NCBI GenBank assembly: GCA_025465465.1
Contig: JAODND010000089.1
Location: forward strand, 85,336 to 149,335
Source: Frankiales bacterium
GTDB lineage: Bacteria; Actinomycetota; Actinomycetes; Mycobacteriales; SCTD01
DNA length: 64,000 nucleotides
Direction of reading: 5' to 3'
This document shows, piece by piece, positions 3-64,000 of this stretch. Position 1 is the first letter of the stretch. Each line of letters starts with the position of its first letter. The notes beneath the pieces were generated by a model, which saw nothing but the letters and a program-made list of their open reading frames with translations, made no database searches and was not told where the DNA came from. The translations under genes and the position numbers were made by a program.

Positions 3-1148
3 ACTGGGCTGCCCGAGGGTCCGGTTTTGACCTGCCCAGGTCCTGCAGTCGCCCTCGAAGGGACCTTGCTCGCACTCCGGACGCTCGCCCCGGATCGTGT
101 CCTTCCCGATGTGCGGCTGCTCGGTGAGCGCGCCGCCTGCGCCGGGCTCAGCCGTCAGGGATCGACCTCGTGCGGACGGAAGACGAAGCTGTTGGCGGCT
201 CGCGACGGGTGGGTCGCCGTCGCGCTGGCCAGGGCGGAGGATCACGAGCTCGTGCCTGCGCTCGTGGAAGACGATGTCGTGCCCGGCCGCGAGTGGGAGG
301 CAGTCGCCAGGTGGGTGGCGTCATCGTCCACGAGTGCTGCCCGAGAGCGTGCCAGGCTTCTTGGCCTTCCGGTGGCGGTGCTCGGCGAGGAGCCGGCGAC
401 CATGACTCCCTGGGTCGTCCAGCGCGTCGGGGCCGGCAGAGAGGTGCGAGGAAGGCCGCGTGTCGTCGATCTGTCGGCGCTGTGGGCGGGGCCGTTGTGC
501 GCGTCCTTGCTGGGACTGCTCGGCTGCGATGTCCTGAAGGTCGAGGATCCGCGTCGTCCAGACGGAGCGCGGGGCGGACCTGCTCGGTTCTTCGATCTGC
601 TGCACGCAGGAGCGAAGTCGGTCCCACTCGACCTTTCGGGTGCGGACGGACGGCGTCGACTGCTCGACCTCGTGCTTGCTGCAGACGTCGTCATCGAGAG
701 CTCCCGGCCCCGGGCACTCGACCAGCTCGGGGTGGTCGCCGAGGAGGTCGTGGCGGAGGCGGGAGTCACGTGGGTGTCGATCACGGCGCACGGTCGCGAC
801 CAGCCGGACCGGGTGGGGTACGGCGACGACGCGGCCGTTGCGGGTGGGCTAGTCGCGTGGACCGTAGGGCGGCCGGTGTTCGTCGCGGACGCAGTCGCCG
901 ATCCGTTGACCGGCGCCTACGCCGCCCTCGCGGCGTGGGCTGGGGTCCTGAACGGTGGCGGCATGCTGGTGGACATGTCGCTGAGCCGGGCTGCCGCGGT
1001 GGCCGCCTCGACGGTGCGGCAGGGGCCGGACGCCGTCGCGTGTGAGGGCGGCTGGTGCGTGTCGACCGACCGCGGGCACGTCGGGGTCGCGGCGCCCTGG
1101 GCCCGGCCGGCGATGGGTCGTGCACCTGCCCTGCGGCGGCCCAGGTGA
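3..1148 (+). CDS. Class III CoA-transferase (CaiB/BaiF family), probably 5'-truncated by window edge
   Basis: RVVDLSALWAGPLC, VLKVE, DVVIESSRP motifs; catalytic-position Asp in VADPLTG. Frame is open from base 3 (TGLPEGPVL...), so the true start is likely upstream of the window. Confidence 0.85.
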   Translation, partial: TGLPEGPVLTCPGPAVALEGTLLALRTLAPDRVLPDVRLLGERAACAGLSRQGSTSCGRKTKLLAARDGWVAVALARAEDHELVPALVEDDVVPGREWEAVARWVASSSTSAARERARLLGLPVAVLGEEPATMTPWVVQRVGAGREVRGRPRVVDLSALWAGPLCASLLGLLGCDVLKVEDPRRPDGARGGPARFFDLLHAGAKSVPLDLSGADGRRRLLDLVLAADVVIESSRPRALDQLGVVAEEVVAEAGVTWVSITAHGRDQPDRVGYGDDAAVAGGLVAWTVGRPVFVADAVADPLTGAYAALAAWAGVLNGGGMLVDMSLSRAAAVAASTVRQGPDAVACEGGWCVSTDRGHVGVAAPWARPAMGRAPALRRPR

Positions 1149-2434
1149 CGTTGCTGCTGGATGTGGAGCTGCCCGAGGGCCGCTGTGACGTACGCGTCGA
1201 TGGCCGACTCGTCGTCGAGGTCGGTCAGTTGTCCCGAGCCGCCGGCGAGGAGGCGGTCAACGGCAACGGGGGGGCGCTCTTGCCCGGCCTCCATGACCAC
1301 CACCTCCATCTGCTCGCGACCGCGGCTGCTTCCGCCTCAGTCGACGTCCGCGATGGTCTGGGCCCTCTCGCTTCCGCCGGGGAGGGATGGCTGCGGGCCG
1401 TCGGCTGGTCGGGCGACGGGGATCGGCATGTCCTGGACGCGGTGCAGCGGCGGCGACCGGTGCGCGTCCAGCACGGCAGCGGCGCCCTGTGGGTGCTGAA
1501 CACCGAAGCGATCGGGCTGTTGCAGCTCGACCGCTCCGACCACCCCGGCGTGGAACGTGATGCCCACGGTCAGCCCACCGGACGGCTGTGGCGCGCGGAC
1601 GCCTTGCTGGGCGAGCTCTTGGGGCGGGAGACACCCGACCTGGCGGGGCTCGGGCTGCGCCTCGCACAGCTGGGCGTCACCGGGGTCACCGACGCCACAC
1701 CCGCCCTCGAGCCCGGTGCCGTACGACTCCTGCGTGCGAGCGTGCCGCAGAAGTTGCAGCTGCTCGGCGACGCAGTCGGCACCGGGCCCAGGAAGATCGT
1801 CATCGCTGATCATGCGCTGCCTTCCTACCCGGAGTTGGTGGCGCAGCTCCGCGACATCCGGCCGCGTGCGGCAGCGATCCATTGCGTCACCCGCGAGGCA
1901 CTGATCCTGCTGCTTGCAGCGATGGAGGAGGTCGGGACGATCCTCGGGGACCGCATCGAGCACGCGGCCGTCATCCCAGAGGAGTTGCTCGGCCACTTAC
2001 CGACGGTGGTCACTCAGCCGGGCTTCCTGACCTGCCATGGCGACAGGTATCGGGCGGAGGTCAGCGACGACGACCTGCCGGATCTCTACCGCTATCGCTC
2101 GGTACTGCAGGCCGGCGGTCACGTCGTCCCTTCCAGCGACGCCCCCTACGGACCGATCGACCCGTGGCAGGTGCTGCGCGCAGCCCGGGACCGCCGCGCA
2201 GCCAGCGGTGCTGTCCTCAGCCGGTTCGAGCGAGTTCCGGTCCGAGTCGCCCTCGACGGCATGCTGCGACCGCTGGCCGACCTCACAGCGCCCGCGCGGG
2301 CCGTCGTCGGCGGCGCGGTGGCCGATCTCGTGCTCCTGCACGTCCCGCGAGACGAGGCGCTCGACCATCCCGAGGCCGACAACGTTCGCTGCACGTGGAT
2401 CGACGGCGGCCTCGTCCACGGCGATCCCGGGTGA
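1145..2434 (+). CDS. Amidohydrolase family protein (Amidohydro_3-like)
   Basis: PGLHDHHLH metal motif, IHC, RIEHA, SSDAP; GTG at 1145 overlaps upstream TGA (GTGA). Confidence 0.85.
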   Translation: MTLLLDVELPEGRCDVRVDGRLVVEVGQLSRAAGEEAVNGNGGALLPGLHDHHLHLLATAAASASVDVRDGLGPLASAGEGWLRAVGWSGDGDRHVLDAVQRRRPVRVQHGSGALWVLNTEAIGLLQLDRSDHPGVERDAHGQPTGRLWRADALLGELLGRETPDLAGLGLRLAQLGVTGVTDATPALEPGAVRLLRASVPQKLQLLGDAVGTGPRKIVIADHALPSYPELVAQLRDIRPRAAAIHCVTREALILLLAAMEEVGTILGDRIEHAAVIPEELLGHLPTVVTQPGFLTCHGDRYRAEVSDDDLPDLYRYRSVLQAGGHVVPSSDAPYGPIDPWQVLRAARDRRAASGAVLSRFERVPVRVALDGMLRPLADLTAPARAVVGGAVADLVLLHVPRDEALDHPEADNVRCTWIDGGLVHGDPG

Positions 2435-3462
2435 ACGCCGTCGCCCCGCTCCTACGGCCGCATGAACTGGCCGGCTCGCGGCTGCTTGAGCTGGACTCAG
2501 ACGGGCTGCCGATGGCGCCCCTGCTGCTGGTCGACCTGTCCGCACCCGTCCCACCGGACGCCGTTGAGGTCGCCCGTGTGACTTCCAGAGTGCTGCTTGG
2601 CATCGCGCCCGGCGGCGTGCCAGATCACGCGCGACAGCTGAGCGAGGCGCTCACGTGCACCCTCGTGACGGGTGGCGCGTCCGCAAGATGCGAGGTCGAC
2701 GTCGACGACCTCGAACGCGCCCTCTCGACCCTGACCCGGCGGGTGGCCGAGACGCCGCGAGCGGCCAGTGTGCTGGTGAGCCTTTTGAGGCTGACGTCGG
2801 TGCTGCCGGTGCGACAAGCGCTGGAAACGGAGTCGCTGGCGTACTCGCTGCTACTCGGCGGGCCGGAGTTCGGCCGATGGCGTCTGTCTCGGCCACGTCG
2901 GGACGTGCCGGCAGAGGCCGGACCGGTCGTGCGGGTCGAACGAGCCGGTCGGCAGCTTCGGCTTGTGCTCGACCGGCCCGCACGTCACAACGCGTTCAAC
3001 CGCGAGATGCGCGACGCTCTCGTGGAGGCATTGCGTTTGGCCGTCGCCGACCCCGATCTGCAGGTTGGCATCTCCGGCACAGGTCCTTCGTTCTGCAGCG
3101 GAGGTGACCTCGACGAGTTCGGCACCGCGCAGGATCTCGTCCGCGCGCACCTCATCCGCACGGAGCGCAGCGCCGGGCTGCTGCTGCACCTGCTCCGCGA
3201 CCGAACCGACGTCCTTCTACACGGTGCTTGCATCGGTGCGGGCCTGGAGCTGCCGGCCTTTGCGGGGCGTGTGCGGTCCCGTCGGGACGCCAGCTTGCAG
3301 TTGCCCGAGCTGGCTATGGGTCTCGTGCCCGGCGCCGGAGGCACCGTCAGCGTCCTGCGCAGAATTGGCCGGTGGCGGACAGCGCACCTGGTCCTCACCG
3401 GAGAGCCGATCGACGCCGCGACGGCCCTGGCCTGGGGCCTCGTCGACACAGTCGAGGATTGA
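2431..3462 (+). CDS. Enoyl-CoA hydratase/isomerase with N-terminal extension
   Basis: FCSGGDL, GAGLE and PELAMG (both canonical Glu); GTG at 2431 overlaps upstream TGA. Confidence 0.88.
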   Translation: MNAVAPLLRPHELAGSRLLELDSDGLPMAPLLLVDLSAPVPPDAVEVARVTSRVLLGIAPGGVPDHARQLSEALTCTLVTGGASARCEVDVDDLERALSTLTRRVAETPRAASVLVSLLRLTSVLPVRQALETESLAYSLLLGGPEFGRWRLSRPRRDVPAEAGPVVRVERAGRQLRLVLDRPARHNAFNREMRDALVEALRLAVADPDLQVGISGTGPSFCSGGDLDEFGTAQDLVRAHLIRTERSAGLLLHLLRDRTDVLLHGACIGAGLELPAFAGRVRSRRDASLQLPELAMGLVPGAGGTVSVLRRIGRWRTAHLVLTGEPIDAATALAWGLVDTVED

Positions 3463-3512: not shown

Positions 3513-3530
3513 TCTCGTAGAAAGTATACG
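3513..3530. promoter_or_regulatory. Putative GntR/FadR operator (motif 1)
   Basis: TCTCGTAGAAAGTATACG upstream of SDR; near-copy at 7813. Confidence 0.6.
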
Positions 3531-3563
3531 AAGCATCGCCGGTGATGCCCAGAAGGAGGACAC

Positions 3564-4424
3564 GTGAGCGGCACGGAGACCAAGAGGATGCACGGCAAGG
3601 TGGCTCTGATCACCGGTGCGGCCCGCGGCCAGGGTCGGGCACACGCGCTCCGCCTTGCCGAGGAGGGCGCGGACATCATCGCTGTCGACATCTGCGAGAC
3701 GCCGGACAGCATGAACTATCCACTCGCTACCGACGAGGACCTGGCTCAGACGGTCAAGGGCGTCGAGGCTCTGGGCCGCCGCATCGTGGCCCGCAAGGGA
3801 GATGTGCGGATCAAGGCCGACCTCGTTGCAACGGTGGAAGCTGGCCTCGCCGAGCTCGGCAGACTGGACGTCGTCGTTGCCAATGCCGGCGTCACCGCCA
3901 TGAACTCGCCCACGCTGCTGCAGGCCTTCGTCGACGGCGTCGAGATCGACCTCGTGGGGGTGCTCCACACGGTGTCGGCGACGCTGCCGCACCTCACAGC
4001 CGGGGCGTCGATCATCATCACCGGCTCGACAGCGGGACTCATGAAGGGTCTCGTCGACAACCCGAAGATCGGTCCGGGAGGAGCGGCCTACGCGTGGTCG
4101 AAGCGCACTCTTGCCTCCTATGTCGAGAGCATCGCGCTGCAGCTCGCGCCAAGCATGATCCGCGTCAACGCGGTGCACCCGACGAACACCAACACCGCGC
4201 TCCTGCACAACGACGACATCTATCGCGCCTTCCGGCCCGACCTCAAGCAGCCGACCCGCGAGGATGCGATGCTGGCCTTTCCGGCGATGCAGGCCATGCC
4301 GATCCCCTACGTGGAGCCCGAGGACATCAGTGCGTTGGTGGCGTTCCTTGCCAGTGACGAGTCTCGCTACATGACGGGTTTGAACCTCCGGGTCGACGCG
4401 GGCGCGATGCTCAAGGGCTCATAG
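3564..4424 (+). CDS. Mycofactocin-coupled SDR family oxidoreductase
   Basis: TGAARGQGRAHA, AVDICE...YPLATDEDL insertion typical of the mycofactocin-dependent SDR clade, YAWSK; RBS AGGAGG before GTG. Confidence 0.85.
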   Translation: MSGTETKRMHGKVALITGAARGQGRAHALRLAEEGADIIAVDICETPDSMNYPLATDEDLAQTVKGVEALGRRIVARKGDVRIKADLVATVEAGLAELGRLDVVVANAGVTAMNSPTLLQAFVDGVEIDLVGVLHTVSATLPHLTAGASIIITGSTAGLMKGLVDNPKIGPGGAAYAWSKRTLASYVESIALQLAPSMIRVNAVHPTNTNTALLHNDDIYRAFRPDLKQPTREDAMLAFPAMQAMPIPYVEPEDISALVAFLASDESRYMTGLNLRVDAGAMLKGS

Positions 4425-4458: not shown

Positions 4459-5886
4459 TCACAGACGTGCGCGCAGCGCCTGGCGATCGATCTTGGACAT
4501 GGCCGTCAAGGGCAGCTCGGGCAGCCAGCGCACCTCCACCGGGTGCTTCCAGCGCGCCAGGCGCGGCCCAAGGAAGCCCATCAGCTCGTCCAGGGACGGC
4601 GCGGGGAGCGTCGGGCGCGCAACGGCGAATGCGACGCCGACCTCGCCCATGATCGGGTCCTCGCGCGCGACCACAGCGACATCCGCAACGGCCGGGTGCT
4701 CGCACAGCGCCGTTTCGACCTCAGCCGGGTAGACGTTGTACCCGCCGCGGACGTACATCTCCTTGCTCCGCCCGACCAGGGCGTACGTGCCGTCCACGCG
4801 GGCCACCGCTCGGTCCCCGGTGCGCAGCCATCCCGCCTGCAGGGTCTCGGCCGTGGCCTGCGGGTCGCGGAAGTAGCCCGCCATCACCGTGGGGGACCGC
4901 AGCCAGAGTTCGCCCGGCTCGTCGACGGGCTGCAGCCGGCCCGTCTCGTCGCGCACCTGTGCCTCGACACCGCCACGTGGCCTGCCTACGCCGTCGAGGG
5001 CAGCTGCTTCGGAGTCGTCGGCGCCCGTGCCCAGGCCGCATCCGCCGGACTCGGTGAGCGAGTAGCGGACCAGGAAGGCATCGGCGAGGCGCTGACGTGC
5101 CTCGGTGACGAGCTGACGCGAGCTGGCTGCGCCGCCCACGACCAGGCGCCGCAGCCGCGGCGGCGGCGTGCGCCGGGCACCCAGTGCTCGGAGGAGCAGG
5201 GCGACCTGCGGCGCGACGGCGCCCAGCTCGGCCATCGCCTCACGCTCGACAACGTCCAGGACGTCGTCCGCGCGCCACCGGCTCAGCACATGGGTGCGCA
5301 GTCCGCGCTGCAGATACCAGGGCAGCTTCGTCATGAACCCGACGTGCGCGAAGGATGTGCTTCCCAACGCGGCCCCGCCCGGCGCCTCCGCCCACTCGCC
5401 ACCGGTGTCGGCCATCGTGACCGCCCGCAGTTGCTCGTCAGCGAACACCGCCGCCTTGGGAAGTCCCGTCGTCCCGGACGTGAACACCAAGATGCCCGAT
5501 GACCGGCCCGGGCGCACGGCACGTCCGGCCCCCTCCTGGGCAAGCGACCGGACATCGTCGAAGCTGCGCAGCCGTACGGCTGGGTCGGCGAGAGCCACCA
5601 GGCGTTCCTGCTCAGCGGGTGCCAGCGCGACGTTGACCCCGGCGGCGACTGCACCGACTTTGGCGGTTGCCGCGTAGGCGATGACGTAGTCGTTTCCGCT
5701 GGGCAGCTGGAGAACGACCCGCTGACCCGCGCCGACACCGCGAGCGGCCAGCGCGGCGGCGACCTCGTCGGACCTGCGGTCCAGGTCCTGGAAGGTGAGG
5801 CGCTCGCCGGAATCCTCCTCGACGAAAGCGGCAGCGTCGCCGAAGCGTTGTGCGGCACCACGGACCGCATCGGCCAGCCAGCTCAC
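4459..5886 (-). CDS. AMP-forming acyl-CoA synthetase (class I adenylate-forming enzyme)
   Basis: FTSGTTGLPK, YSLTES, WLRTGD, RGGYNVYPAEVE, terminal KI motif. Confidence 0.92.
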   Translation of the reverse strand: MSWLADAVRGAAQRFGDAAAFVEEDSGERLTFQDLDRRSDEVAAALAARGVGAGQRVVLQLPSGNDYVIAYAATAKVGAVAAGVNVALAPAEQERLVALADPAVRLRSFDDVRSLAQEGAGRAVRPGRSSGILVFTSGTTGLPKAAVFADEQLRAVTMADTGGEWAEAPGGAALGSTSFAHVGFMTKLPWYLQRGLRTHVLSRWRADDVLDVVEREAMAELGAVAPQVALLLRALGARRTPPPRLRRLVVGGAASSRQLVTEARQRLADAFLVRYSLTESGGCGLGTGADDSEAAALDGVGRPRGGVEAQVRDETGRLQPVDEPGELWLRSPTVMAGYFRDPQATAETLQAGWLRTGDRAVARVDGTYALVGRSKEMYVRGGYNVYPAEVETALCEHPAVADVAVVAREDPIMGEVGVAFAVARPTLPAPSLDELMGFLGPRLARWKHPVEVRWLPELPLTAMSKIDRQALRARL

Positions 5887-5996: not shown

Positions 5997-6911
5997 CTAG
6001 AAGCGCATCCCGGGCGCGCGGGTCTCGAAGACCTCCTGGGACAGGATGGAGCCGAGCGACGCGGCGTCCCACCGCTTTCCGTTGGCACTCACGACGCGCC
6101 GTTCCTTCCAGCCCTGCATCCAGATGATCCGGTCCTCGATCGAGCGGATGACGTGTCCGGTGACGTGCGCGGCCTGGTCGCTGGCCAGCCAGGCGACGAG
6201 GGGCGAGCTGTTCGACGGATCCATCGGGTGGTAGTCGTCCTCGGCGATGTCGTTGGGCTCGAACGCCTCGCCCATCCCCGGCATGGTGGCTGTGATGCGC
6301 GTGAGGCCGGACGGCCCGACGGCGTTGACGGTGACTCCGATCTTGTGAAGCTCGAGTGCGAGCGTCTGGGTCAACCCGACGATCCCGGCCTTCGCGGCGG
6401 CGTAGCTGCTCTGCCCGAAGTTGCCGCCCAGGCCGGCGCCGGAGGTCGTGTTGATGATGCGTCCCCCAACATCGGCCTCTCCGCTCTTTGCCCTTCCGCG
6501 CCAGTGCACGGCAGCGTGGTGGCAGGTGGACCAGGTGCCCTTGAGGTGCACCCGAATCACCGCGTCGAAGTCGGTGTCGACCATGTTCCAGATCACGGCG
6601 TCCCGCACGATTCCGGCATTGTTGACGAGCACGTCGAGCTGCCCGAACTCAGTCACCGCGCGTTGCACCATGGCGGCCGCGTCCGCGTGGTCGCTCACGT
6701 CGCCGTAGTCGGCAACGGCCGTACCGCCGGCCTTCTCGATGAGGGCTACGGTCTCGTCTGCCGCCTGGTCCTGGCCTTCACCGCGGACAGAGCCGCCGAG
6801 GTCGTTCACCACGACCTTTGCCCCGTGCTTCGCGAGTTCGAGGGCGTGTCCACGTCCGATTCCGTGACCCGCACCCGTGACGAGTGCCACCTTGTCGTCG
6901 AGCAGACCCAT
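5997..6911 (-). CDS. SDR family oxidoreductase
   Basis: TGAGHGIG, VVVNDLGG, NNAGIVRD, YAAAK; start moved to ATG 6911 after GAGG RBS. Confidence 0.92.
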   Translation of the reverse strand: MGLLDDKVALVTGAGHGIGRGHALELAKHGAKVVVNDLGGSVRGEGQDQAADETVALIEKAGGTAVADYGDVSDHADAAAMVQRAVTEFGQLDVLVNNAGIVRDAVIWNMVDTDFDAVIRVHLKGTWSTCHHAAVHWRGRAKSGEADVGGRIINTTSGAGLGGNFGQSSYAAAKAGIVGLTQTLALELHKIGVTVNAVGPSGLTRITATMPGMGEAFEPNDIAEDDYHPMDPSNSSPLVAWLASDQAAHVTGHVIRSIEDRIIWMQGWKERRVVSANGKRWDAASLGSILSQEVFETRAPGMRF

Positions 6912-6930
6912 TGTTTCCTCCGACTTTTGG

Positions 6931-6943
6931 ATATTGTCTACAT
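6931..6943. promoter_or_regulatory. Putative GntR/FadR operator (motif 1, variant)
   Basis: ATATTGTCTACAT in divergent spacer. Confidence 0.55.
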
Positions 6944-6996
6944 GAGCCGGGATGGGTGATGCAAGGCTCGAGCGCAAGCACTGAGGAGGCGCCGCG

Positions 6997-7812: not shown

Positions 7813-7830
7813 TCTCGTAGATAATATACA
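7813..7830. promoter_or_regulatory. Putative GntR/FadR operator (motif 1)
   Basis: TCTCGTAGATAATATACA just before thiolase-like ATG. Confidence 0.6.
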
Positions 7831-7838
7831 GTCATCGC

Positions 7839-8984: not shown

Positions 8985-8992
8985 CCGGAACC

Positions 8993-9181: not shown

Positions 9182-9195
9182 CTCGACCTCCATGA

Positions 9196-9211
9196 CATAG
9201 CACCGACTATG
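9196..9211. promoter_or_regulatory. Putative second operator (motif 2, TetR-like palindrome)
   Basis: CATAGCACCGACTATG in ferredoxin/DoxX divergent spacer; 14/16 identical to 42257-42272. Confidence 0.55.
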
Positions 9212-9282
9212 GACCACCATGGACCCTACTGGACCCCCGGGGTCATGTCTGGTGTCCGCCGCACCTTCCGAAAGGACCGCTC

Positions 9283-13182: not shown

Positions 13183-13199
13183 AAAGCGGGAGGCTAGCC

Positions 13200-55415: not shown

Positions 55416-55420
55416 CTCGG

Positions 55421-56497: not shown

Positions 56498-56537
56498 GGC
56501 ACTCCTTGCTGGTCGGTTGCCGGTCAGGGTCTGTCCG

Positions 56538-58886
56538 TCATGCTCGGGACCGGTCCAGGCACTCGGCGTCTACCGCGGCGCGCACATCCGCCGGGAGGCT
56601 GAGCTGCGCGAGCACCTCATCGGTGTGCGCGCCGAGTGCCGGCGCGAAGCCGATAGGCGCGGCGGGGGTCGCGGAGAAATCGAGGTACGGGCGCTGGAAC
56701 GCGGTGCTCGCGAAACGGGGCTTGGACACCTCCGCTGGGACGCCGGCCCGGTCCAGCACGCTCAGCCAGTCGGCGGCGCTCCGGCAGGAGAGAGCATCAC
56801 CGAGGCGCTTGCTGAGATCCTCGTCGTTGATCAGCCGGCTGGCCGGGTCCTCGAAGCGCGCGTCCGTGAGGAGGTCTTCGCAACCCAGGGTGGTGCAGAG
56901 CGCCGCCCAGTGCTGGGGGGTGACTGCGGCCAGGCAGAGCCAGCCGTCGGCTGTCTCGTAGAGGCGGTACAGCGCGGAGAAACCGAGCTGGAGGTCGTCG
57001 AGACGGGCGCGGTCAGGTCCGCTGCCGTCCGGGAACGCGAAGGTGCCGGACGATGTCGCGAGACAGGCTCCGAGGATGGAGCAGCCGACTTCCTGGCCCT
57101 CGCCCGTGCGCTGCCGGTCGTAGATCGCCGAGACGATCCCGATGGCCACGAGGAACCCGTTGCCGAGGTCTCCGAACGAGGTGCCGAAGAAGGGACGTCC
57201 GCCTCGTCCACATCCGCCGTCCTCCCACTCCTGGCCGGCGAGCGCCGATGCCGACTGGTCGGTGCCGGGAAGGTTGGCGGCGGACCGGGCACGGTCGAAC
57301 CCTCGGCTGGCTGCGTAGATGATGTCGGGCTTCAAGGCGCGCACGTCGTCGTAGCCGACGCCGATCCGCTCGGCGACGCCCCAGCGCATGTTGTGCGTGA
57401 CGACGTCGGCGGTCTTGACGAGCTCGTGGAAGGCGGCCAGTCCGTTGGGCTTGCCCAGGTTCAGCAGGACGCTGCGCTTGCCGCGGTTGGCCAGCTGTCC
57501 GATCCCCGTCGCGAGCCACGGCCCGTCCCAGGGTGCGTTGATCTTGATGACGTCTGCGCCCAGGTCGGCGAGCAGCGAGGAGCCGTAGGGCCCGGCGAGC
57601 GCGAGCCCGATGTCGAGAATCCGCACACCTTGCAGCGGCTTGCTGACGGGGGCGCGCTGGACACGGGCTGGAGATGCCTCATCGGTCGCTGCGGCCCGCG
57701 TCGCGGCGTCTCGCTGGACCAGCGCCGTGTGCTCGCCGCGACGGGGAGCCGGGCCCTGGACCGCGCCGGGCGAGCGGCTCAGCTCCGTGAGGACACCGAC
57801 GTGCCGGATGTCTCCCAGGTCGGGGTCCTGCACGCACACGACCAGACCCTCGTTGAGCAGCGTCGGGTCCGAGAGGGCCTGCTCGGGGCTGCGGACGATC
57901 TGGACGCCCTCGTGGACCCGCTCGGCCCAGCGTCGCCAGTCCTCAGCCGGAAACTTCTTGAACGCCTCTTGCATGAGCGGTAGGTAGTGGAACAAGACGA
58001 TGATGTTCTCAGGCTCCATGCCGATCCGGCTCGGATCCACCCGCCGGTGCGTGTACTCCGGGGCGGCTGCGTCCTCGAGGCGGTCGTGCTCGGCCGCCTG
58101 CACGACGGACAGCGGCTTGATCGGCCACTGGTGCACCCACCGGCCGTCCTGGCACTCGAACAGGCCTCGCGGTGCGCCGCGCAGGTTCATCCACGTCCCG
58201 CCCGTGGCACCGCCCGCTGGCAGCGCGGGAGCGAACGACGCACGCGGCAGCATCGACGCCTCGATGTGCTGCCCGGTGCCGGTTCGTTCACGGGCCACGA
58301 GTGCGGCAGCAATCGCGAGCGTCGCGGCGTAGAAGCCGTTGAGGCTCATCCAGGGTGAGGCGCTGAACAGCGGCCCGTCCGCGCGCGCCGCCTGCTCGGC
58401 GCCGTCGGGGATGGGCACGTCGGGCACACCGAGGTCTCCATGGGACATGATGCCGCCGCGTTGCGCCCATTGCGCACCGGTGCGGGCGGCGACGAGGGCT
58501 TCATAGCCAGGCCTGTCGCTGTGTTCGTTTCCCTCCCCATAGGCGGTGACGGAGCAGCTGACGAGCCGCGGGTTGAGGGCGCTCAGCTGTTGTGGGCCGA
58601 GTCCGAGCTGTTCCATGGCGCCCGGTCGCAGGGAGTCGATCAGTACGTCTGCGTTCCGGAGCAGCGCGAGCAGCACCTGACGGTCGGCGTCGTGGCGTAG
58701 ATCGAGGGTGGCGCTGCGCTTGCCGCGGTTCCAGACCCGGTACCCCGGGAGGTCAGCGAAGGGGTCATCCGGTCGCTCGACCCGGGTCACGCGCGCCCCC
58801 TGGTCGGACAGCATCATGCCGACCATGGGGCCGGCGACCCCTGACGTCAGCTCGAGCACTTCCAGGCCGCTGAAGGCACCTGTCAC
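56538..58886 (-). CDS. Tandem (two-domain) class III CoA-transferase
   Basis: Two repeats of the ..LE/LD...AGP...D.GA.V...NRGKRS motif; about 782 aa; GTG 58886. Confidence 0.9.
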   Translation of the reverse strand: MTGAFSGLEVLELTSGVAGPMVGMMLSDQGARVTRVERPDDPFADLPGYRVWNRGKRSATLDLRHDADRQVLLALLRNADVLIDSLRPGAMEQLGLGPQQLSALNPRLVSCSVTAYGEGNEHSDRPGYEALVAARTGAQWAQRGGIMSHGDLGVPDVPIPDGAEQAARADGPLFSASPWMSLNGFYAATLAIAAALVARERTGTGQHIEASMLPRASFAPALPAGGATGGTWMNLRGAPRGLFECQDGRWVHQWPIKPLSVVQAAEHDRLEDAAAPEYTHRRVDPSRIGMEPENIIVLFHYLPLMQEAFKKFPAEDWRRWAERVHEGVQIVRSPEQALSDPTLLNEGLVVCVQDPDLGDIRHVGVLTELSRSPGAVQGPAPRRGEHTALVQRDAATRAAATDEASPARVQRAPVSKPLQGVRILDIGLALAGPYGSSLLADLGADVIKINAPWDGPWLATGIGQLANRGKRSVLLNLGKPNGLAAFHELVKTADVVTHNMRWGVAERIGVGYDDVRALKPDIIYAASRGFDRARSAANLPGTDQSASALAGQEWEDGGCGRGGRPFFGTSFGDLGNGFLVAIGIVSAIYDRQRTGEGQEVGCSILGACLATSSGTFAFPDGSGPDRARLDDLQLGFSALYRLYETADGWLCLAAVTPQHWAALCTTLGCEDLLTDARFEDPASRLINDEDLSKRLGDALSCRSAADWLSVLDRAGVPAEVSKPRFASTAFQRPYLDFSATPAAPIGFAPALGAHTDEVLAQLSLPADVRAAVDAECLDRSRA

Positions 58887-58938
58887 GGCGGCCCCCCTTC
58901 CCCATCGAGGGTGGGACCAGTGGCACCGGGGCGGCGCC

Positions 58939-58954
58939 ACATCATGCATACAAT
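58939..58954. promoter_or_regulatory. Putative GntR/FadR operator (motif 1)
   Basis: ACATCATGCATACAAT upstream of tandem CoA-transferase. Confidence 0.68.
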
Positions 58955-58962
58955 ATGTTCGC

Positions 58963-60180
58963 TCATCTCGAAAGCGTTTGGGGGCGACCGGCACGGGGCG
59001 TGACGGACACCTGCAGCTGCTTCAACCCGCGAAGGTTGCCCTGCAGGGCGCGCACGGCGCCGCCTTCGACGAGCTCCCAGTCTGCGTAGCGCGTGAGGAA
59101 CTCCTCCAGCGCGACGCGGGTCTCCATCCGGGCGAGGGAGGAGCCCAAGCACATGTGCCGCCCGAGGCCGAAGCCGACGTGCCGCTCGAGCGGCCGGTCG
59201 AGGTCGTAGCGCTCCGGGTCCGGGAACTCCCGTGCGTCATGCAGCGCGGCGCCGGTCATGAGCAGCACCCGGTGGTCAGCGGGGATCGTGACGCCGTGCA
59301 GCGTCACCTCGCGGGTGGTCGTCCGGCCTTGGTAGTGGCTGGGCGGGTCCCAGCGGAGCGCCTCCTCGACCGCCTTGGGCAGCAGTCCTGGGTCGGCTAC
59401 CACCCGGGACCGCTCGTCCGGGTGCCACTTGAGGGCGATGATCGCGTTCGAGATGAGCTTGGCCACGGTCTCGTGGCCGGCGAACGCGAGCTCGAGAAAT
59501 CGGGTTCCCAGCTCGGCGTCGCCGGGCATGCGCGTGCCGCCGGCCCCGTCGTCGACCGGCGTCGTCATCAGCAGGCTGACGAGATCGCTTCCGGGTTGGC
59601 GGCGTCGCTGGGAGGCGAGTTCGACGAGCAGGACGGTGAGGCCCTTCGCGGCGACGGCCTCCTCCGGGCTCGCGTCGCGGCCGAGCCCGGACGCGACGAG
59701 TCCGGCGAGATGGACGATCTCGTCACGCAGTTCCAGCGGGATGTCCAGCAGCTCACTGATGACGTGCATCGGCAACCGGATGGCGAACTCATCGACGAAC
59801 TCGAATGTGTCGAGGCCGGCGAGTGGGTCGAGCAGCTCGGCGGCCGTCTGACGGATGAACGGTTCCAGCGCTGAGATGCGCCGAGGTGTGAACAACGGCG
59901 CCACGATCCTGCGGTGCAGGGTGTGCTCCGGCGGGTCCTTCACGATGAGCAGCGGCGTCGCGGCCTCGTCGCCCTCGATGGTGACGCCCTTGGCTGACGA
60001 GAAGGTCTCGTAGTCCAGATGCGCCTCCACGACATCGGCGTAGCGCGACAGCGCGTAGAACTCCAGCTGCTCGTTCCGGTAGACCGGCGCCTCGTCCCGC
60101 AGTCGGGCGTAGACGGGGAACGGGTTGTGGACGATCGCAGCGTCATAGGGGTCGTAGACGAGCTCAGGCCCAGCTCTCAC
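58963..60180 (-). CDS. Cytochrome P450
   Basis: DPPEHT..R, AGHET I-helix, EEALR ExxR, FGLGRHMCLG heme Cys; GAGGTG RBS before GTG 60180. Confidence 0.96.
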   Translation of the reverse strand: MRAGPELVYDPYDAAIVHNPFPVYARLRDEAPVYRNEQLEFYALSRYADVVEAHLDYETFSSAKGVTIEGDEAATPLLIVKDPPEHTLHRRIVAPLFTPRRISALEPFIRQTAAELLDPLAGLDTFEFVDEFAIRLPMHVISELLDIPLELRDEIVHLAGLVASGLGRDASPEEAVAAKGLTVLLVELASQRRRQPGSDLVSLLMTTPVDDGAGGTRMPGDAELGTRFLELAFAGHETVAKLISNAIIALKWHPDERSRVVADPGLLPKAVEEALRWDPPSHYQGRTTTREVTLHGVTIPADHRVLLMTGAALHDAREFPDPERYDLDRPLERHVGFGLGRHMCLGSSLARMETRVALEEFLTRYADWELVEGGAVRALQGNLRGLKQLQVSVTPRAGRPQTLSR

Positions 60181-60251
60181 TCGGGGGCCACCTCGCCGTC
60201 CTGTCGTCACTGTCCAGCCACGCCCATGGCGGGCATCTCGACTTGGTTGCA

Positions 60252-60264
60252 GAATGTATACTGC
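60252..60264. promoter_or_regulatory. Putative GntR/FadR operator (motif 1)
   Basis: GAATGTATACTGC in P450/carboxylase divergent spacer. Confidence 0.6.
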
Positions 60265-60524
60265 ATCACATTGCTCGATCCGTGGCCGCCTCGTACCCGG
60301 GATCTTCACCGCGTCAGACCTCGCCGGACCCGTTCAGACTTTCGATCCGCCATGCGGACGCTCCGACCGACCATTCGCCCGCGTCGAGCTCGGGACTGCC
60401 CACGCCGCAGGGCCCGGGCACGCGCGTGGCCGCCACGTAGGCCCCGTCGTCCTGGCCCGTTGCTACCGCCGAGTAGCGGCGGGGCAGGATGTGACGCAGC
60501 CGACACGTGGAGGATCACCGCCGG

Positions 60525-61310
60525 ATGAAGCCCGATCTCAGTTCGCTGCTGCACGACCTGGCGGCGGAGCACGCCGCGCTCGACGCGCGCGTCGCCGACC
60601 TGTCCGAGACGGAGTGGCGCAGCCCGACGCCGGCCGAGGGCTGGGACGTCGCCGACTGCGTCAGCCACCTGCACTACTTCGACGGGACGGCAATCCTGGC
60701 GCTCGTCGACGGCCTTGCGTTCACCAAGCACCTCGACGCGATGCTGAGCGGCGGGGTGCAGCCGGGGGCCGACGTGCAGTTCGGGCGTGACAACTCGGGC
60801 GGCCACCTGCTCGAGGACTGGCGCCGGGGACGGTCCGCGCTGCTGACCGCCCTCGACAAGGCCGATCCCGCTGCCCGCGTGCCCTGGTACGGGCCGCCGA
60901 TGAGCCTCGCGAGCTTTGCCAGCGCGCGGCTGATGGAGACGTGGGCGCACGGACAGGACGTGTCCGACGCCCTCGGGCTCGAGCCGGTCACGAGCGACCG
61001 ACTGCGGCACGTCTGCCACATCGGCGTGCAGGCCCGGCCGTACGCGTACCTGGTGCACGGGGTAGAGAACCCGGACACGCCCGTGCGGGTCGAGCTCACC
61101 GGACCCGGTGCGGGGGAGTGGGGTCCCGAGGACGCGACCGACCGCATCGCCGGGCCGGCTCTCGACTTCGCGCTGCTCGTCACGCAGCGCCGGCACCTCG
61201 ACGACCTCACGCTGACCGTCGAGGGCGACACCGCTGCCGGGTGGGCGCGCATCGCGCAGGCCTACGCGGGTCCCGCCGGCACCGGTCGCGCGCCGCTGGG
61301 GGCGGCGTGA
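60525..61310 (+). CDS. TIGR03084-like metal-binding protein (mycothiol-dependent maleylpyruvate isomerase superfamily)
   Basis: TPAEGWDV.D.VSHL, WYGPPMS, RLMETWAHGQD; start 60507 or 60525. Confidence 0.85.
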   Translation: MKPDLSSLLHDLAAEHAALDARVADLSETEWRSPTPAEGWDVADCVSHLHYFDGTAILALVDGLAFTKHLDAMLSGGVQPGADVQFGRDNSGGHLLEDWRRGRSALLTALDKADPAARVPWYGPPMSLASFASARLMETWAHGQDVSDALGLEPVTSDRLRHVCHIGVQARPYAYLVHGVENPDTPVRVELTGPGAGEWGPEDATDRIAGPALDFALLVTQRRHLDDLTLTVEGDTAAGWARIAQAYAGPAGTGRAPLGAA

Positions 61311-62932
61311 CCGTGCTGGGCACGGCCGTCGACCGTGCGTCGGAGGCCTACACCAAGAACCGCGAAGACATGTTGGGCCAGCTCGAGAAGCTCGACGAAC
61401 AGCTGCAGCTGTCCGGTCGGGGCGGCACCGAAAGGGCCGTCGAGCGGCACAAGGCCGCGGGCAAGCTGACCGTGCGGGAGCGGGTCGCGATGCTCATCGA
61501 TCCGGACACGCCGTTCCTCGAGATCGGTGCGCTGGCGGGCTTCTACACCGACTACCCGGTCGGCGGCGGCGCCCTCGTCGGGATCGGCAGCATCAACGGG
61601 ACGGAGTGCGTCATCTTCGGCCACGACCCGACGGTCCTCGGTGGCGCGCTGACGCAGACCAGCATCCCGAAGATCGACCGGGCACTGCAGATCGCCAAGC
61701 AGAACCGGATGCCCTATGTGCAGCTCATCGAGTCGGCCGGCGGCGACCTGCGCCCCCGCGGCAGCGACATCGAGGAGATCCTGAAGAGCTCGACGTTCCA
61801 CTTCGCCGGGTCCGGTGGCTTCTTCTACGAGACCACCGTGCTCTCCGGTCTCGGCATCCCGACCATCGCGATCGTCTTCGGCAGCTCGACGGCCGGCGGG
61901 GCCTACATGCCCGGCCTGTCCGACTACACGATCCTCGTCAAGGACCAGGCCAAGGTCTTCCTGGGCGGCCCGCCGCTGGTGAAGGTCGCGACGGGTGAGG
62001 AGTCCACCGACGAGGAGCTCGGCGGCGCCGAGATGCATGCGGCTGTGAGCGGCCTCGCCGACTACCTCGCCGAGGACGAGCTCGACGCCATCCGGCAGGC
62101 CCGCGACGTCGTCGGGCACCTGCACTGGCGCAAGAGGGGACCCGGGCCTACCGGTCCCGCTGACCCTCCGGTGCTGGAGTCCGACGACCTGCTCGGTCTG
62201 ATCTCGCAGGACTTGCGCCAGCCCCTCGACGTCCGCGAGGTGATCGGCCGGATCACCGACGGCAGCCGGTTCGAGGAGTTCAAGGCCCGCTACGGCACCA
62301 CGCTGGTCTGCGGCTGGGCCGAGGTCCACGGCTATCCGGTCGGCATCCTCGGCAACAACGGCCCGCTCTTCCCGGAGTCGTCGCAGAAGGCCTCGCAGTT
62401 CATCCAGCTGTGCAACAAGACCTCGACTCCGCTGGTGTTCCTGCAGAACATCACGGGCTACATGGTCGGCCGGGACTACGAGCAGGCCGGCATGGTCAAG
62501 TGGGGCAGTCAGATGATCAACGCGCTGTCCAACAGCGCGGTGCCGCACGTCACGATCATCCTCGGCTCGTCCTACGGCGCCGGCAACTACGGGATGGGGG
62601 GCCGCGGCTTCGGCACCCGTTTCGTGTTCCTCTGGCCGACGGCGAAGGTCGCCGTCATGGGGCCGCAGCAGATCGCCGGTGTGATGTCGATCGTCCGTCG
62701 CGCCCAGGCAGCCAGGCGCGGCGAACAGGTCGACGAGGCCCTGGAGAAGGTGATCACGGACACGGTCGCGGAGGTGCAGGAGCGGCAGTCGCTCGCGATG
62801 TACGCCAGTGGGCGTGGCGTCGACGACGGCGTCATCGACCCGCGCGACACCCGCACCGTCGTCGGGCTCTGCTTGAGCGCCTGCCACTCGGCCGAGGTGC
62901 GGGGCGCAGAGTCGTTCGGGGCGTTCCGGTGA
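61307..62932 (+). CDS. Acyl-CoA carboxylase carboxyltransferase (beta) subunit
   Basis: [49 protein letters not shown]; GTGA overlap. Confidence 0.93.
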
Positions 62933-64000
62933 TCCGTCGCCTGCTGGTCGCCAACCGCGGCGAGATCGCGCGGCGCATCATGCGCACCGCGCACGCCATG
63001 GGCATCGACACCATCGCCGTCTATGCCGATGGCGACGTGATGGCGCCGTTCGCCCGCGAGGCCTCGGTCGCTGTCGCACTCGACGGCCACACCGCGGCGG
63101 AGACCTACCTCGACGCTGACAAGGTCCTGGCCGCGGCCAAGCGCGCCGGTGCCGACGCCGTCCACCCCGGCTACGGCTTCCTGTCGGAGAACGCCCGCTT
63201 CGCGCAGGCCGTGATCGACGCTGGCCTGATCTGGGTCGGTCCGTCGCCGGAGGCAATCGCTGCCATGGGCGACAAGCTCGAGGCCAAGAAGCTGATGGCG
63301 GCCGCCGGCGTACCGACCCTGGACGCCCCCGAGGGTCACTTCCCGGTGCTGGTGAAGGCGGCCATGGGCGGTGGTGGCAAGGGGATGCGCGTCGTCACGC
63401 GTCCCGAGGAGCTCGACGAGGCGCTGGCCGGCGCCCGACGGGAAGCACTCGCCGCGTTCGGCGACGACACGGTGTTCCTCGAGCGCTACCTCACCGGCGC
63501 ACGGCACGTCGAGGTGCAGATCCTCGGTGATGCCCACGGCAACCTCGTGCACCTCGGCGAACGTGAGTGCTCGATCCAGCGTCGCCACCAGAAGGTCATC
63601 GAGGAGGCGCCGTCGCCTGCCGTCGACGAGCGGCTCCGGGAGCGCCTCGGCGACGCGGCACTCGCGGCGGCGAGGGCGATCGGCTACACGAATGCCGGCA
63701 CGGTGGAGTTCCTGCTCGCCGGCCGCGAGTTCTACTTCCTCGAGGTCAACACCCGGCTCCAGGTCGAGCACCCCGTCACCGAGCTGGTCACCGGCCTCGA
63801 CCTCGTGCGCGAACAGCTCCTCATCGCCCAGGGTGAGGCGCTGACCTTCGCCCAGGCCGACGTCACCCTCACGGGCCACGCCGTCGAGGCACGGCTCTAT
63901 GCAGAGGACCCCGCCAACGACTTCCTCCCCGTCACCGGGACGGTGCTGACCTGGGTGCCCGCGCCGGGCGCCAGGTTCGACAGCGGGATCGAGTCGGGCA
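62929..64000 (+). CDS. Biotin carboxylase (acyl-CoA carboxylase alpha subunit), truncated by window end
   Basis: Not in ORF track; my translation from GTG 62929 gives [61 protein letters not shown]. Confidence 0.93.

Follow-up and report, generated by a model that had tools for sequence, protein, structure and literature searches.

In actinobacteria, sterols are taken up through Mce4, and cholesterol and HIP (methylhexahydroindanedione propionate) are broken down by a KstR- and KstR2-controlled pathway, described in Mycobacterium tuberculosis and Rhodococcus, that comprises FadD3, IpdE1-E2, EchA20, IpdAB, ChsH1-ChsH2-Ltp2 and the ChsE pairs. In this system the DUF35 partner of Ltp2 is fused to the MaoC domain of ChsH2. 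The dit cluster for abietane degradation includes the Rieske dioxygenase DitA and the extradiol dioxygenase DitC. The steroid and abietane paradigms both depend on ring-cleaving dioxygenases, and outside them the routes by which soil organisms degrade saturated polycyclic terpenoids (resin acids, triterpenoids, hopanoids, naphthenic-type acids) have been charted only poorly. Here we describe a catabolic island of a Frankiales bacterium, studied in a window of 64,000 nucleotides (the whole stretch of DNA analysed, C72:85336-149335) of a 3.85-Mb genome in 115 contigs. Judging from its sequence, we lean towards the view that the island may encode a coenzyme A (CoA)-dependent route, free of dioxygenases and distinct from the 9,10-seco steroid pathway, by which an imported carboxylic acid of the terpenoid type, alicyclic and/or methyl-branched, is degraded. 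An earlier note on this DNA had proposed a different bulky or branched lipid as the substrate, and the genomic evidence (a separate operator, ring-degradation genes located elsewhere, and terpenoid-type enzymes) supports that interpretation.

Several other described systems share parts with the island. The Atu/Liu genes of Pseudomonas (atuR-atuABCDEFGH, liuABCDE) remove beta-methyl branches via carboxylation. The lower thn operon of anaerobic naphthalene degraders combines the AtuA-like lyase ThnQS, the CoA-transferase ThnP, the metallo-hydrolase ThnN, acyl-CoA dehydrogenases (ACADs), crotonases and thiolases (PMC12016498). The removal of C24-branched sterol side chains involves the Ltp3-Ltp4 aldol-lyase and a carboxylation step (PMC6678751).

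A shared operator and the extent of the probable regulon

Genes were called with a codon-usage caller trained on the genome and annotated with Pfam, which gave 56 genes in the window; its composition is uniform, with a G+C content of 70%. Thirty-nine of these genes encode CoA/lipid enzymes: eight crotonases, five ACADs, five short-chain dehydrogenases/reductases (SDRs) and one aldehyde dehydrogenase (ALDH); four AMP-forming ligases, one ADP-forming acyl-CoA synthetase and four family-III CoA-transferase genes (one a fused double); two true thiolases and two thiolase-like proteins for C-C cleavage; a MaoC/hot-dog/DUF35 trio, a second DUF35 and a large acyl dehydratase; and a two-subunit biotin carboxylase. 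Eight more are oxygenase or accessory genes (a cytochrome P450, a small ferredoxin, two PF04909 proteins, an Amidohydro_3 protein, a DoxX protein, an MDMPI_N/DinB protein and one unannotated protein), and the others encode a six-gene LIV-type (leucine/isoleucine/valine) ATP-binding cassette (ABC) importer, a GntR/FCD regulator, a GAF-GGDEF-EAL protein and a phosphatase-family protein. The earlier estimate of about 50 CoA/lipid enzymes was thus slightly high.

The operons of the island are linked by a palindrome with a consensus close to ATGTTGTATACAACAT (motif 1), which occurs at 15 promoter-proximal sites. By manual reading of the coordinates no site is more than about 110 nt away from a start codon, and most are in divergent promoter regions. 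The heptamer TATACAA is present in nine copies in the window against 0.04 expected, and TTGTATACAA, with up to two mismatches, in seven copies against 0.76 expected, a number reached by none of 100 shuffles. When a palindromic position weight matrix (PWM) built from ten sites was scanned over the whole genome, all 13 matches scoring above 19 fell within C72:88852-145584 (window 3517-60268), and no motif-1 site was found on contigs C8 and C21. KstR-like sequences were not noticed among the operators found, in a survey that did not include a scan aimed at KstR boxes.

The local regulator is gene 18 (18341-19048 in window coordinates, which are used below wherever no contig is named; minus strand), which carries PF00392 and PF07729 and is therefore of the GntR/FCD type. 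Operators of the GntR/FadR subfamily follow a GT-N-AC palindromic pattern, and the TTGTATACAA core fits it, with sites at 15 positions including the promoter of the GntR gene itself (19073). The earlier note had reported both a shared operator and a GntR-type regulator; the operator proved real and far beyond chance by the counts, the shuffles and the genome scan, and the regulator assignment is borne out by the two domains. Most likely, the window from 3.5 to 64 kb, together with about 3 kb past its end, constitutes one GntR/FCD-controlled regulon. A 165-nt contig of a soil metatranscriptome matches the 3' end of the GntR gene (18326-18487) with one mismatch and is the sole sign of transcription.

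Along the window, the motif-1 sites lie at 3517-3536 (PWM score 17.4), at 6929-6948 in the divergent promoter of genes 6 and 7 (15.5), at 7817-7836 before gene 8 (17.9), at 13168-13187 between genes 13 and 14 (22.1), where Pseudofrankia has a site at the matching position (locus L011, 27.2), and at 19073-19092 in the GntR promoter (15.6). Two sites are found close together at 20551-20570, between genes 21 and 22 (22.2), and at 20642-20661, before gene 22 (24.0); these are followed by 24723-24742 before gene 25 (25.2) and by 32015-32034 between genes 30a and 30b (27.1), which is matched in position by a site on a 122-kb metagenomic contig (L020). The site at 39429-39448 between genes 36 and 37 (26.7) has a perfect palindrome core. 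The remaining sites are 42214-42233 between genes 39 and 40 (23.3), 46754-46773 before the importer (29.0), 52766-52785 before gene 47 (25.9), 58939-58958 before gene 51 (26.3) and 60249-60268 between genes 52 and 53 (19.8).

Sterol-like genes and the canonical steroid clusters

Four hallmarks of sterol catabolism had been named by the earlier note, a FadD3-family ligase, an Ltp2-family protein, ChsH1/H2-like parts and alpha2beta2-type ACADs, and each has a counterpart in the window. Gene 25 (24761-26446, plus strand; start revised to 24761, behind a GGAGGA site) reaches 726.5 bits on NF005801, the NCBIfam FadD3 equivalog with a cut-off of 657, and is 53% identical to the FadD3 of contig C21. 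Gene 5 (4459-5886, minus strand), also an acyl-CoA ligase, was rejected as a FadD3, with 229 bits against the same cut-off. Gene 48 (53887-55002, minus strand) has as its best PDB match the Ltp2 of Thermomonospora curvata (6OK1, E 2.8e-103) and keeps Tyr294 and Tyr344 (T. curvata numbering), presumably the catalytic tyrosines of Ltp2, with VYDAF and GEGY-LHG at the aligned positions. It overlaps gene 49 (54999-55415, minus strand), a stand-alone DUF35 protein, and a fused ChsH2-type protein is probably encoded on C8. A split hot-dog/DUF35 set is formed by genes 19-21, all on the minus strand: a ChsH1/HadA-like hot-dog protein (19169-19603; FAS1_DH_region), a stand-alone DUF35 (19674-20108; OB_ChsH2_C and zf-ChsH2) and a MaoC hydratase (20105-20524). 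Genes 14 and 15 make up a large/small ACAD pair on the plus strand, the large subunit (13200-14387) with N, M and C domains and a best NCBIfam match to pimC_large at 222 bits, below the cut-off, and the small subunit (14389-15360) without the middle domain and closest to IpdE2 at 133 bits, against a cut-off of 450.

None of the genes specific to ring degradation accompanies these parts. Pfam searches of the window gave no Rieske/KshA_C, FAD_binding_2 (KstD), extradiol dioxygenase or class-I CoA_trans (IpdAB) domain, and the earlier failure to recognise kstD, kshAB, hsaABCD or ipdAB there is thus upheld. A genome-wide search for kst, hsa and ipd genes, which that note had suggested, placed the ring genes on contigs C8 and C21 and not beside the window. 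PF19298 (KshA) matches only C21:22516-23157 in the genome, and none on C72, with a KshA_C score of 276 bits; PF01144 (IpdA/IpdB) matches only on C71 and C21; and TIGR03213 (HsaC) has its best match on C8 and none on C72, the C8 protein matching M. tuberculosis HsaC (2ZI8) at E 1.9e-89.

Contig C21 further carries a ferredoxin-reductase-type (PaaE-like) gene, possibly KshB (best match TIGR02160, 234 bits, below the cut-off), an IpdC-like FabK-type reductase, an IpdF-type SDR (PRK07831, over the cut-off), a second FadD3 (704 bits), an EchA20-type crotonase and a FadA6-type thiolase (both over their cut-offs), a KstD-like protein (453 bits, below the cut-off) and an HMGL-like aldolase, probably HsaF by our own assignment. 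On C8 there are a gene run of hsaA-hsaC-hsaB size, a 307-aa protein with a DUF35-like region that is probably ChsH2, a 128-aa neighbour that is probably ChsH1, and a copy of Ltp2. The C8 steroid cluster also holds a P450. These clusters (C8 at about 29-35 kb and 75-79 kb, C21 at about 21-55 kb) amount to an apparently near-complete canonical pathway; since both contigs end inside them, the two may adjoin.

Identity to the T. curvata Ltp2 is 73% for the C8 copy and 51% for gene 48, which makes gene 48 a paralogue rather than an orthologue of the characterised enzyme. By such comparisons, the sterol-like genes of the window are paralogues, with the predicted true orthologues on C8 and C21. The genome encodes the 9,10-seco steroid pathway separately from the island. 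The finding that the earlier note had said would speak against its interpretation, orthologues of the known pathway with ring genes just outside the window, was therefore not encountered; C8 and C21 hold their own FadD3, Ltp2 and probable ChsH2.

The sterol-like parts could still mean that the island assists steroid catabolism as an accessory branch: it would handle a sterol feature beyond the core pathway, for instance phytosterol side chains branched at C24, or a fragment of a bile acid or seco-steroid, and pass its product to the C8 and C21 enzymes. We rank this explanation second and regard it as unlikely. It would account for a FadD3-family ligase above the curated cut-off, for the Ltp2-family aldolase with its DUF35 protein, for the small ACAD subunit closest to IpdE2, and for a P450 whose best solved relatives include sterol and vitamin-D side-chain hydroxylases; the full ring pathway of the genome could receive the products, and a relative of the cluster in Actinocorallia contains a KshA_C Rieske protein. 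The phytosterol C24 scheme runs through C26 oxidation, CoA activation, desaturation, C28 carboxylation, hydration and aldol cleavage, and the published scheme needs a carboxylase, a hydratase and an Ltp-type aldol-lyase and, in the passage that sets it out, leaves the carboxylation enzyme unnamed (PMC6678751). However, the regulator and operator of the island differ from those of the steroid clusters and are absent there, the island is far larger than a branch-removal module, and most congeners have KshA but not the island regulator or an orthologue of its oxygenase. In addition, the paper on the phytosterol transcriptome of Mycobacterium sp. VKM Ac-1817D never mentions a carboxylase, an amidohydrolase or GntR. 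Uptake through a LIV-type ABC importer also contrasts with Mce4 uptake of sterols, in a genome that was not searched for Mce.

Terpenoid-type enzymes and the proposed route

The preferred reading, a route for a terpenoid-type acid, draws on a second group of enzymes. Gene 13 (11890-13119, minus strand) belongs to the DitZ/PtmU3 group; its best PDB matches are DitZ (8UYR, E 8.8e-58) and PtmU3 (6OMP, E 3.8e-36), so that its best solved relatives are diterpenoid hydroxylases, DitZ being a diiron diterpenoid hydroxylase. Amidohydrolase-related dinuclear oxygenases are defined by the motifs D-x-H and D-x-P-H-x-D/E (PMC13154177), and PtmU3 is reported to be a beta-hydroxylase of CoA-linked diterpenoids (PMC7782822). 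With the C-terminal motif required to lie at least 200 residues after D-x-H, gene 13 shows both, DAH at residues 25-27 and DYPHQD at 366, and is by these signatures a predicted dinuclear (diiron-type) oxygenase. The other PF04909 protein, gene 50 (55421-56497, minus strand), has DSH but fails the second signature with D-F-P-H-P-G, in which the last acidic ligand is missing, as does the protein at C72:79168-80229. These two proteins resemble AibH1, described as a mononuclear partner subunit (PMC13154177), and could be partners of the signature-positive oxygenases. Electrons for the P450 and/or the diiron oxygenase are likely supplied by the small Fe-S ferredoxin of gene 9 (8993-9220, minus strand; Fer4_15). 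The P450, gene 52 (58963-60180, minus strand), has 5VWS, Vdh, the CYP125 ancestor and CYP130 as its best PDB matches, at about 200 bits.

Genes 54 (61307-62932) and 55 (from 62929, running off the window at 64000), both on the plus strand, encode the carboxyltransferase and the biotin carboxylase/biotin carboxyl carrier protein subunits of a carboxylase of the gamma-carboxylating lineage of methylcrotonyl-CoA carboxylase (MCC) and geranyl-CoA carboxylase (GCC); gene 54 matches 3U9R_B at 498 bits and 5IKL_B at 463 bits. Directly after gene 55 come an AtuA protein (PF07287, 529 bits, C72:150152-151873) and a crotonase, together spanning C72:150152-152616, and beyond them lie unrelated or housekeeping genes (patatin, MFS, PPK2, YaaA, prolyl-tRNA synthetase, NusA and IF-2). 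The AtuA-like ThnQS is reported, partly from unpublished data, to be a C-C lyase that acts at a tertiary hydroxylated carbon (PMC12016498). At C38:43075-47449 the genome has yet another MCC-lineage carboxylase pair, its third, with the gene of an HMGL-like lyase behind it; there is no HMGL-like gene on C72. The C38 genes are probably the housekeeping leucine (Liu) pathway, a canonical MCC with its 3-hydroxy-3-methylglutaryl-CoA (HMG-CoA) lyase, and the two AtuA-paired carboxylases of the island are therefore extra copies. Neither the window nor its annotated flanks gave a Pfam match to a Rieske domain or to a dioxygenase of the glyoxalase type.

A route can be proposed from these parts. The LIV-type importer would take up an organic acid, and this acid or its CoA ester would lift repression by causing the GntR protein to leave the TTGTATACAA-type operators. 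Methyl or alcohol groups could be converted to carboxylates by the P450 and small ferredoxin, the SDRs and the ALDH, and the four AMP-forming ligases (one of the FadD3 family), the ADP-forming synthetase and the family-III CoA-transferases would form and transfer the thioesters. The presence of a FadD3-family ligase points to an intermediate that resembles HIP, a bicyclic propionate, in shape. Where a quaternary alpha or tertiary beta carbon leaves an ACAD unable to act, the DitZ/PtmU3-type diiron oxygenase may insert a beta-hydroxyl, and the Ltp2-type aldolase with its DUF35 partner could then cleave the C-C bond by a retro-aldol reaction, opening a ring or removing a branch. Beta-methyl branches would be removed by gamma-carboxylation through the MCC/GCC-lineage enzyme, hydration by a crotonase and the AtuA-type lyase. 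The heteromeric and ordinary ACADs, the eight crotonases, the hot-dog hydratases, the SDRs and the two true thiolases would carry out several beta-oxidation-like rounds on mono- and dicarboxylic CoA esters. Dicarboxylic products are included since PimC is the nearest relative of the large ACAD and since gene 36 (38244-39374, minus strand), a family-III CoA-transferase of the dicarboxylate type that keeps the YD motif with its catalytic Asp, is closest to SUGCT/Frc-type transferases, with Frc-like, SUGCT and YfdE proteins as its best PDB matches. The sequence of P450 oxidation, CoA activation, retro-aldol cleavage and beta-methyl carboxylation had already been sketched from the letters, and it gains support from the DitZ/PtmU3-type oxygenase, the AtuA and crotonase pair and the separate MCC on C38.

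A bolder version, which we consider doubtful, is that the island, together with its relatives in the Frankia group, the Actinomadura group, Streptomyces and mycobacterial lineages, encodes an undescribed aerobic way of opening saturated terpenoid rings without ring-cleaving dioxygenases. Here the P450 would turn a ring methyl into a carboxylate, to be activated by a CoA-transferase or ligase; the diiron amidohydrolase-fold oxygenase would hydroxylate the tertiary beta carbon, and the Ltp2/DUF35 pair would break the ring by a retro-aldol reaction. AtuA-type lyases and gamma-carboxylases would strip the remaining methyl branches. If true, the A-ring cleavage of platensimycin biosynthesis would have a general counterpart in catabolism, serving plant or microbial diterpenoids, triterpenoids or hopanoids in soil.

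Several observations weigh against the terpenoid-acid route. The match between gene 13 and DitZ is of only 199 bits over about 390 residues, so the substrate cannot be transferred from one to the other, and the FadD3-family, Ltp2-family and IpdE2-like parts also fit a steroid-derived substrate. The geranyl-CoA type of carboxylase has Gly in place of Phe191 of MCC and lacks a three-residue insertion (PMC4673880), and gene 54 is MCC-like, with TFHF aligned at the MCC Phe and extra loop insertions; as it keeps the Phe, it is not a clear geranyl-CoA-type enzyme. The gene 18 protein is presumed to bind motif 1, and the site at 60249 lies about 250 nt from gene 53, which makes GntR control of the carboxylase/AtuA operon uncertain. 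Finally, the locus was found only in soil DNA metagenomes, and three metatranscriptome runs of the same study gave, with one exception, chance matches of 18-25 nt to the island.

It is quite unlikely that the region represents no single pathway and instead gathers paralogous modules of beta-oxidation and acyl-CoA enzymes, which would serve a variety of fatty, branched-chain and dicarboxylic acids under a global, lipid-responsive GntR/FadR-like regulator. The genome does have many paralogues of the ligases, ACADs, crotonases and SDRs, the closest relatives of the large ACAD (the pimeloyl-CoA dehydrogenase family) and of one CoA-transferase (dicarboxylate transferases) agree with such substrates, and a cyclic di-GMP protein and a phosphatase-family gene lie inside the region. 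However, the operator occurs nowhere else in the genome, so the regulator is not a global one; the diiron oxygenase, the P450/ferredoxin, the Ltp2/DUF35 and AtuA/carboxylase sets and the FadD3-family ligase are not needed for ordinary fatty acids; and the gene neighbourhoods and operator positions recur in distant genera. That the island serves to make or tailor a natural product derived from a diterpenoid, as PtmU3 does in platensimycin biosynthesis, is very improbable, for although PtmU3 is among the relatives of gene 13 and beta-oxidation-like trimming of CoA-linked diterpenoids is known there, Pfam gave no terpene synthase, prenyltransferase, polyketide synthase or non-ribosomal peptide synthetase domain in the window or annotated flanks, and the importer, the thiolases and the many complete beta-oxidation sets point to breakdown.

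Neighbouring genes, distribution and known systems

The other genes of the window are mostly of the families already named. Crotonases are encoded by genes 3 (2431-3462, with an N-terminal extension of about 165 aa, ECH_1 covering residues 179-341 only), 7 (6997-7809), 11 (9823-10653), 16 (15357-16193), 26 (26443-27261) and 37 (39467-40198, start revised) on the plus strand and by gene 27 (27266-28087) on the minus strand, and SDRs by genes 4 (3564-4424, plus strand, with the operator at 3517), 6 (5997-6911, minus), 23 (22325-23086, plus), 34 (36709-37503, plus) and 39 (41465-42202, minus; FabG-like and 42% identical to the IpdF-like SDR of C21). Further acyl-CoA ligases are genes 22 (20683-22314, plus, start revised) and 28 (28084-29574, minus); ACADs are genes 29 (29571-30713, minus, without a middle-domain hit), 31 (32782-34068, plus) and 32 (34101-35252, plus). 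Thiolases are genes 24 (23083-24315, plus; Thiolase_N and Thiolase_C) and 38 (40215-41372, minus). Gene 33 (35249-36715, plus) is the ALDH, gene 10 (9283-9822, plus) the DoxX membrane protein, gene 53 (60507-61310, plus) the MDMPI_N/DinB-like protein and gene 35 (37500-38231, plus) a 243-aa protein without a Pfam hit. The ADP-forming acyl-CoA synthetase, gene 17 (16208-18331, plus; CoA_binding_2, Succ_CoA_lig and ATP-grasp_5), is syntenic in Pseudofrankia.

Several proteins depart from their families. Gene 8 (7839-8984, plus) is an SCPx-type thiolase-like protein (Thiolase_C_1) with 35% identity to the T. curvata Ltp2, without the GEAY-IHG tyrosine motif and with no nucleophile Cys at the aligned position. 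Gene 12 (10669-11889, minus; PF02515) is a family-III CoA-transferase homologue without the catalytic Asp, having His-Gly (HG) at the position of the catalytic Tyr-Asp (YD) of gene 36. In the fused double family-III transferase of gene 51 (56538-58886, minus; two PF02515 stretches), the C-terminal half keeps the Asp and the N-terminal half has Glu, a pattern shared by the fused double transferases of the island. An open reading frame of 660-755 aa at 30710-32977, without a Pfam hit, was rejected as one gene in favour of two divergent genes with an operator between them: gene 30a (P0001; 422 aa, 30710-31978, minus) and the crotonase of gene 30b (32060-32785, plus; Pfam, revised call). Gene 30a has no Pfam or PDB match; from the names of its homologues, labelled acyl dehydratase or MaoC N-terminal and some matching PF13452, it is a probable hot-dog-fold acyl dehydratase.

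The importer (genes 42-47, 46832-53638, plus) consists of a substrate-binding protein, a fused permease, an ATPase, two unannotated proteins and a second ATPase, with operators at 46754 and 52766. The two embedded proteins, of 440 and 153 aa (50946-52708, plus), have no credible Pfam match, and paralogues of the 440-aa one occur in at least three other LIV-type importers of the genome (C99, C43 and C55; 39-47% identity). Genes 40 (42495-43646, plus; endonuclease/exonuclease/phosphatase family) and 41 (43732-46602, plus; GAF-GGDEF-EAL), the phosphatase-family and cyclic di-GMP genes, sit in the middle of the regulon after an intergenic region with both operator types. Rfam and tRNA scans gave no RNA genes in the window. 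The annotated flanks, about 20 kb per side, contain further genes of the same enzyme types and then housekeeping genes.

The second operator type is a palindrome, CATAGT-N4-ACTATG (motif 2), with six copies in the genome, all at promoters in or beside the island: four just upstream of the window (C72:65044, 72240, 77321 and 85127), one at the ferredoxin/DoxX promoter (9197-9210) and one between genes 39 and 40 (42258-42271). C72:82741-83406 encodes a protein with a TetR-like N-terminus, recognised by eye, and motif 2 probably defines a TetR-type regulon, with this gene as the candidate regulator, that interlocks with the GntR regulon. Gene 1 (3-1148, plus; PF02515), a family-III CoA-transferase gene that runs off the window start with the motif-2 operator at C72:85127 just upstream, probably belongs to the upstream TetR-type regulon. 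Given the upstream sites and the TetR-like gene, this probably applies to genes 1-3 as a whole, gene 2 being the Amidohydro_3 protein (1145-2434, plus; PF07969). The two regulons touch.

The island extends beyond the window and is partly duplicated. Mirror-image paralogous modules occupy C72:56983-85335 on one side and window 53887-64000 with C72:149336-152616 on the other. Besides AtuA and a P450, both contain a carboxylase pair, a fused double CoA-transferase and one protein each of the DUF35, Ltp2-like and PF04909 kinds. The two AtuA proteins are 54% identical, the upstream carboxylase pair is 52-55% identical to that of the window, and the upstream P450 is 67% identical to gene 52. The upstream carboxyltransferase has Ala and no insertion at the discriminating positions and is thus GCC-like. 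The upstream module also has a second signature-positive oxygenase, a thioesterase, a ligase, a gene-50-like protein, an 829-aa double CoA-transferase and, by sequence appearance only, a LIV-type importer of its own. Its oxygenase, P450, DUF35, Ltp2-like and thioesterase genes share a strand and are arrayed head to tail, overlapping or separated by short gaps, an arrangement which suggests that they work together.

Among 12 congeneric and 8 same-order genomes, gene 18 has no homologue at E<=1e-20 and the best match to gene 13 is 45% identical; of the 12 congeners, 9 have KshA and all have AtuA. In one congener, G006, which is 97% complete, the single AtuA (C8:87953-89662 of that genome) is 56-57% identical to both island copies and lies in a neighbourhood that shares no genes with theirs, which makes it a third AtuA context in the genus. 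Homologues were also found in more distant actinobacteria. Those of gene 13, at 72-83% identity, occur in Frankia, Pseudofrankia, Parafrankia, Actinocorallia, Spirillospora and Streptomyces and in metagenome-assembled genomes of Mycobacterium and Nocardia; those of gene 30a, at 66-77%, occur in Actinomadura, Spirillospora, Actinocorallia, Streptomyces, Frankia and Blastococcus.

Gene order is retained in part. At the Pseudofrankia inefficax locus the oxygenase faces an ACAD-ACAD-crotonase-ADP-forming synthetase series. The L020 contig has the ligase and crotonase pair of the gene 25/26 type, a dehydratase/ACAD facing a crotonase/ACAD, a CoA-transferase and the DUF35/thiolase-like pair, and the Actinocorallia locus (L021) has the ligase and crotonase pair, a CoA-transferase, the DUF35/thiolase-like pair, two GntR/FCD genes (46-48% to gene 18) and a KshA_C Rieske gene; in both loci the ligase and crotonase pair adjoins the oxygenase. 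In Streptomyces (locus L012) an ACAD pair and a GntR/FCD gene stand beside the oxygenase. A search of the relatives with a 14-mer at two mismatches was too strict, giving one match in the own genome. Operator-like sites stand at the corresponding promoters in Pseudofrankia (27.2, oxygenase/ACAD) and at four promoters of L020 (21-27), with weaker ones in Actinocorallia (18.4 before the oxygenase) and none of comparable score in the Streptomyces locus. The synteny check across Actinomycetota that had been proposed earlier thus found core neighbourhoods and operator-like sites recurring in Pseudofrankia, in L020 and, less clearly, in Actinocorallia, and we read the regulon as old, patchily distributed and accessory in the genus rather than as a recent local accretion. 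In Actinocorallia sp. B10E7 (JBDPLZ010000003.1:133915-155153), a 326-aa Rieske/KshA_C oxygenase at 8243-9223 of the locus adjoins the diiron-type oxygenase, a hint that steroid-like polycyclic compounds may be the substrates of related pathways.

Literature searches retrieved no description of the island as a regulon or pathway and nothing relevant on FadD3/GntR/amidohydrolase clusters; the system is built from known enzyme families. The island offers a sharply delimited regulon with a readable operator, cultured carriers of the core cluster exist (candidates are Pseudofrankia inefficax, CP002299, at about 6.47-6.49 Mb, Actinocorallia sp. B10E7, Spirillospora sp. CA-255316 and strains of Actinomadura or Streptomyces), and its conserved unit places a P450, a CoA-transferase, a diiron oxygenase, DUF35 and an Ltp2-type aldolase beside carboxylase/AtuA modules. 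It would give a physiological context to diiron amidohydrolase-fold oxygenases, AtuA-type lyases and non-steroid Ltp2 and FadD3 paralogues, and it cautions against annotating FadD3 and Ltp2 paralogues of this kind as steroid genes.

Compared with cholesterol and HIP catabolism, the island shares the FadD3-family ligase, the Ltp2-family aldolase with DUF35, the MaoC/hot-dog pair, the large/small ACAD pair, the many crotonases, SDRs and thiolases, and the logic of degrading rings and side chains as CoA thioesters. However, it lacks KstD, KshAB, HsaABCD, IpdAB and IpdC; its regulator is of the GntR/FCD type, with another operator, where the steroid pathway has the TetR-type KstR proteins, and its importer is of the LIV type. 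For C24-branch removal it has candidate genes for P450 oxidation, CoA activation, desaturation, carboxylation, hydration and Ltp-type cleavage, but it has no link to the KstR regulon, far more enzymes than are needed and a non-sterol importer.

With the Atu/Liu systems the island has in common AtuA, a two-subunit carboxylase of the MCC/GCC lineage and a crotonase, with an ACAD, an SDR and a ligase nearby. Its gene order (MDMPI_N, carboxyltransferase, biotin carboxylase, AtuA, crotonase), with a GntR operator nearby, differs from the atuABCDEFGH order, and the TetR-type AtuR is lacking; it also differs from Atu/Liu in having no HMG-CoA-lyase-type gene, an MCC-like Phe with insertions, and a much larger set of alicyclic-type enzymes. 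The oxygenase of gene 13 is like DitZ and PtmU3 (8UYR, 6OMP; PMC13154177, PMC7782822) in its PF04909 domain, in both signature motifs and in the tie of that group to terpenoid acid and CoA-ester metabolism. In contrast to DitZ, to which the match is distant (199 bits), it has no dit-type Rieske or extradiol dioxygenase nearby, and in contrast to PtmU3 its context is catabolic. The lower thn operon resembles the island in the mix of families that opens saturated rings as CoA esters, including an AtuA-type lyase (PMC12016498); whereas thn is anaerobic, deltaproteobacterial and linked to aryl-CoA reductases, the island combines an O2-dependent P450 and diiron oxygenase with biotin carboxylases.

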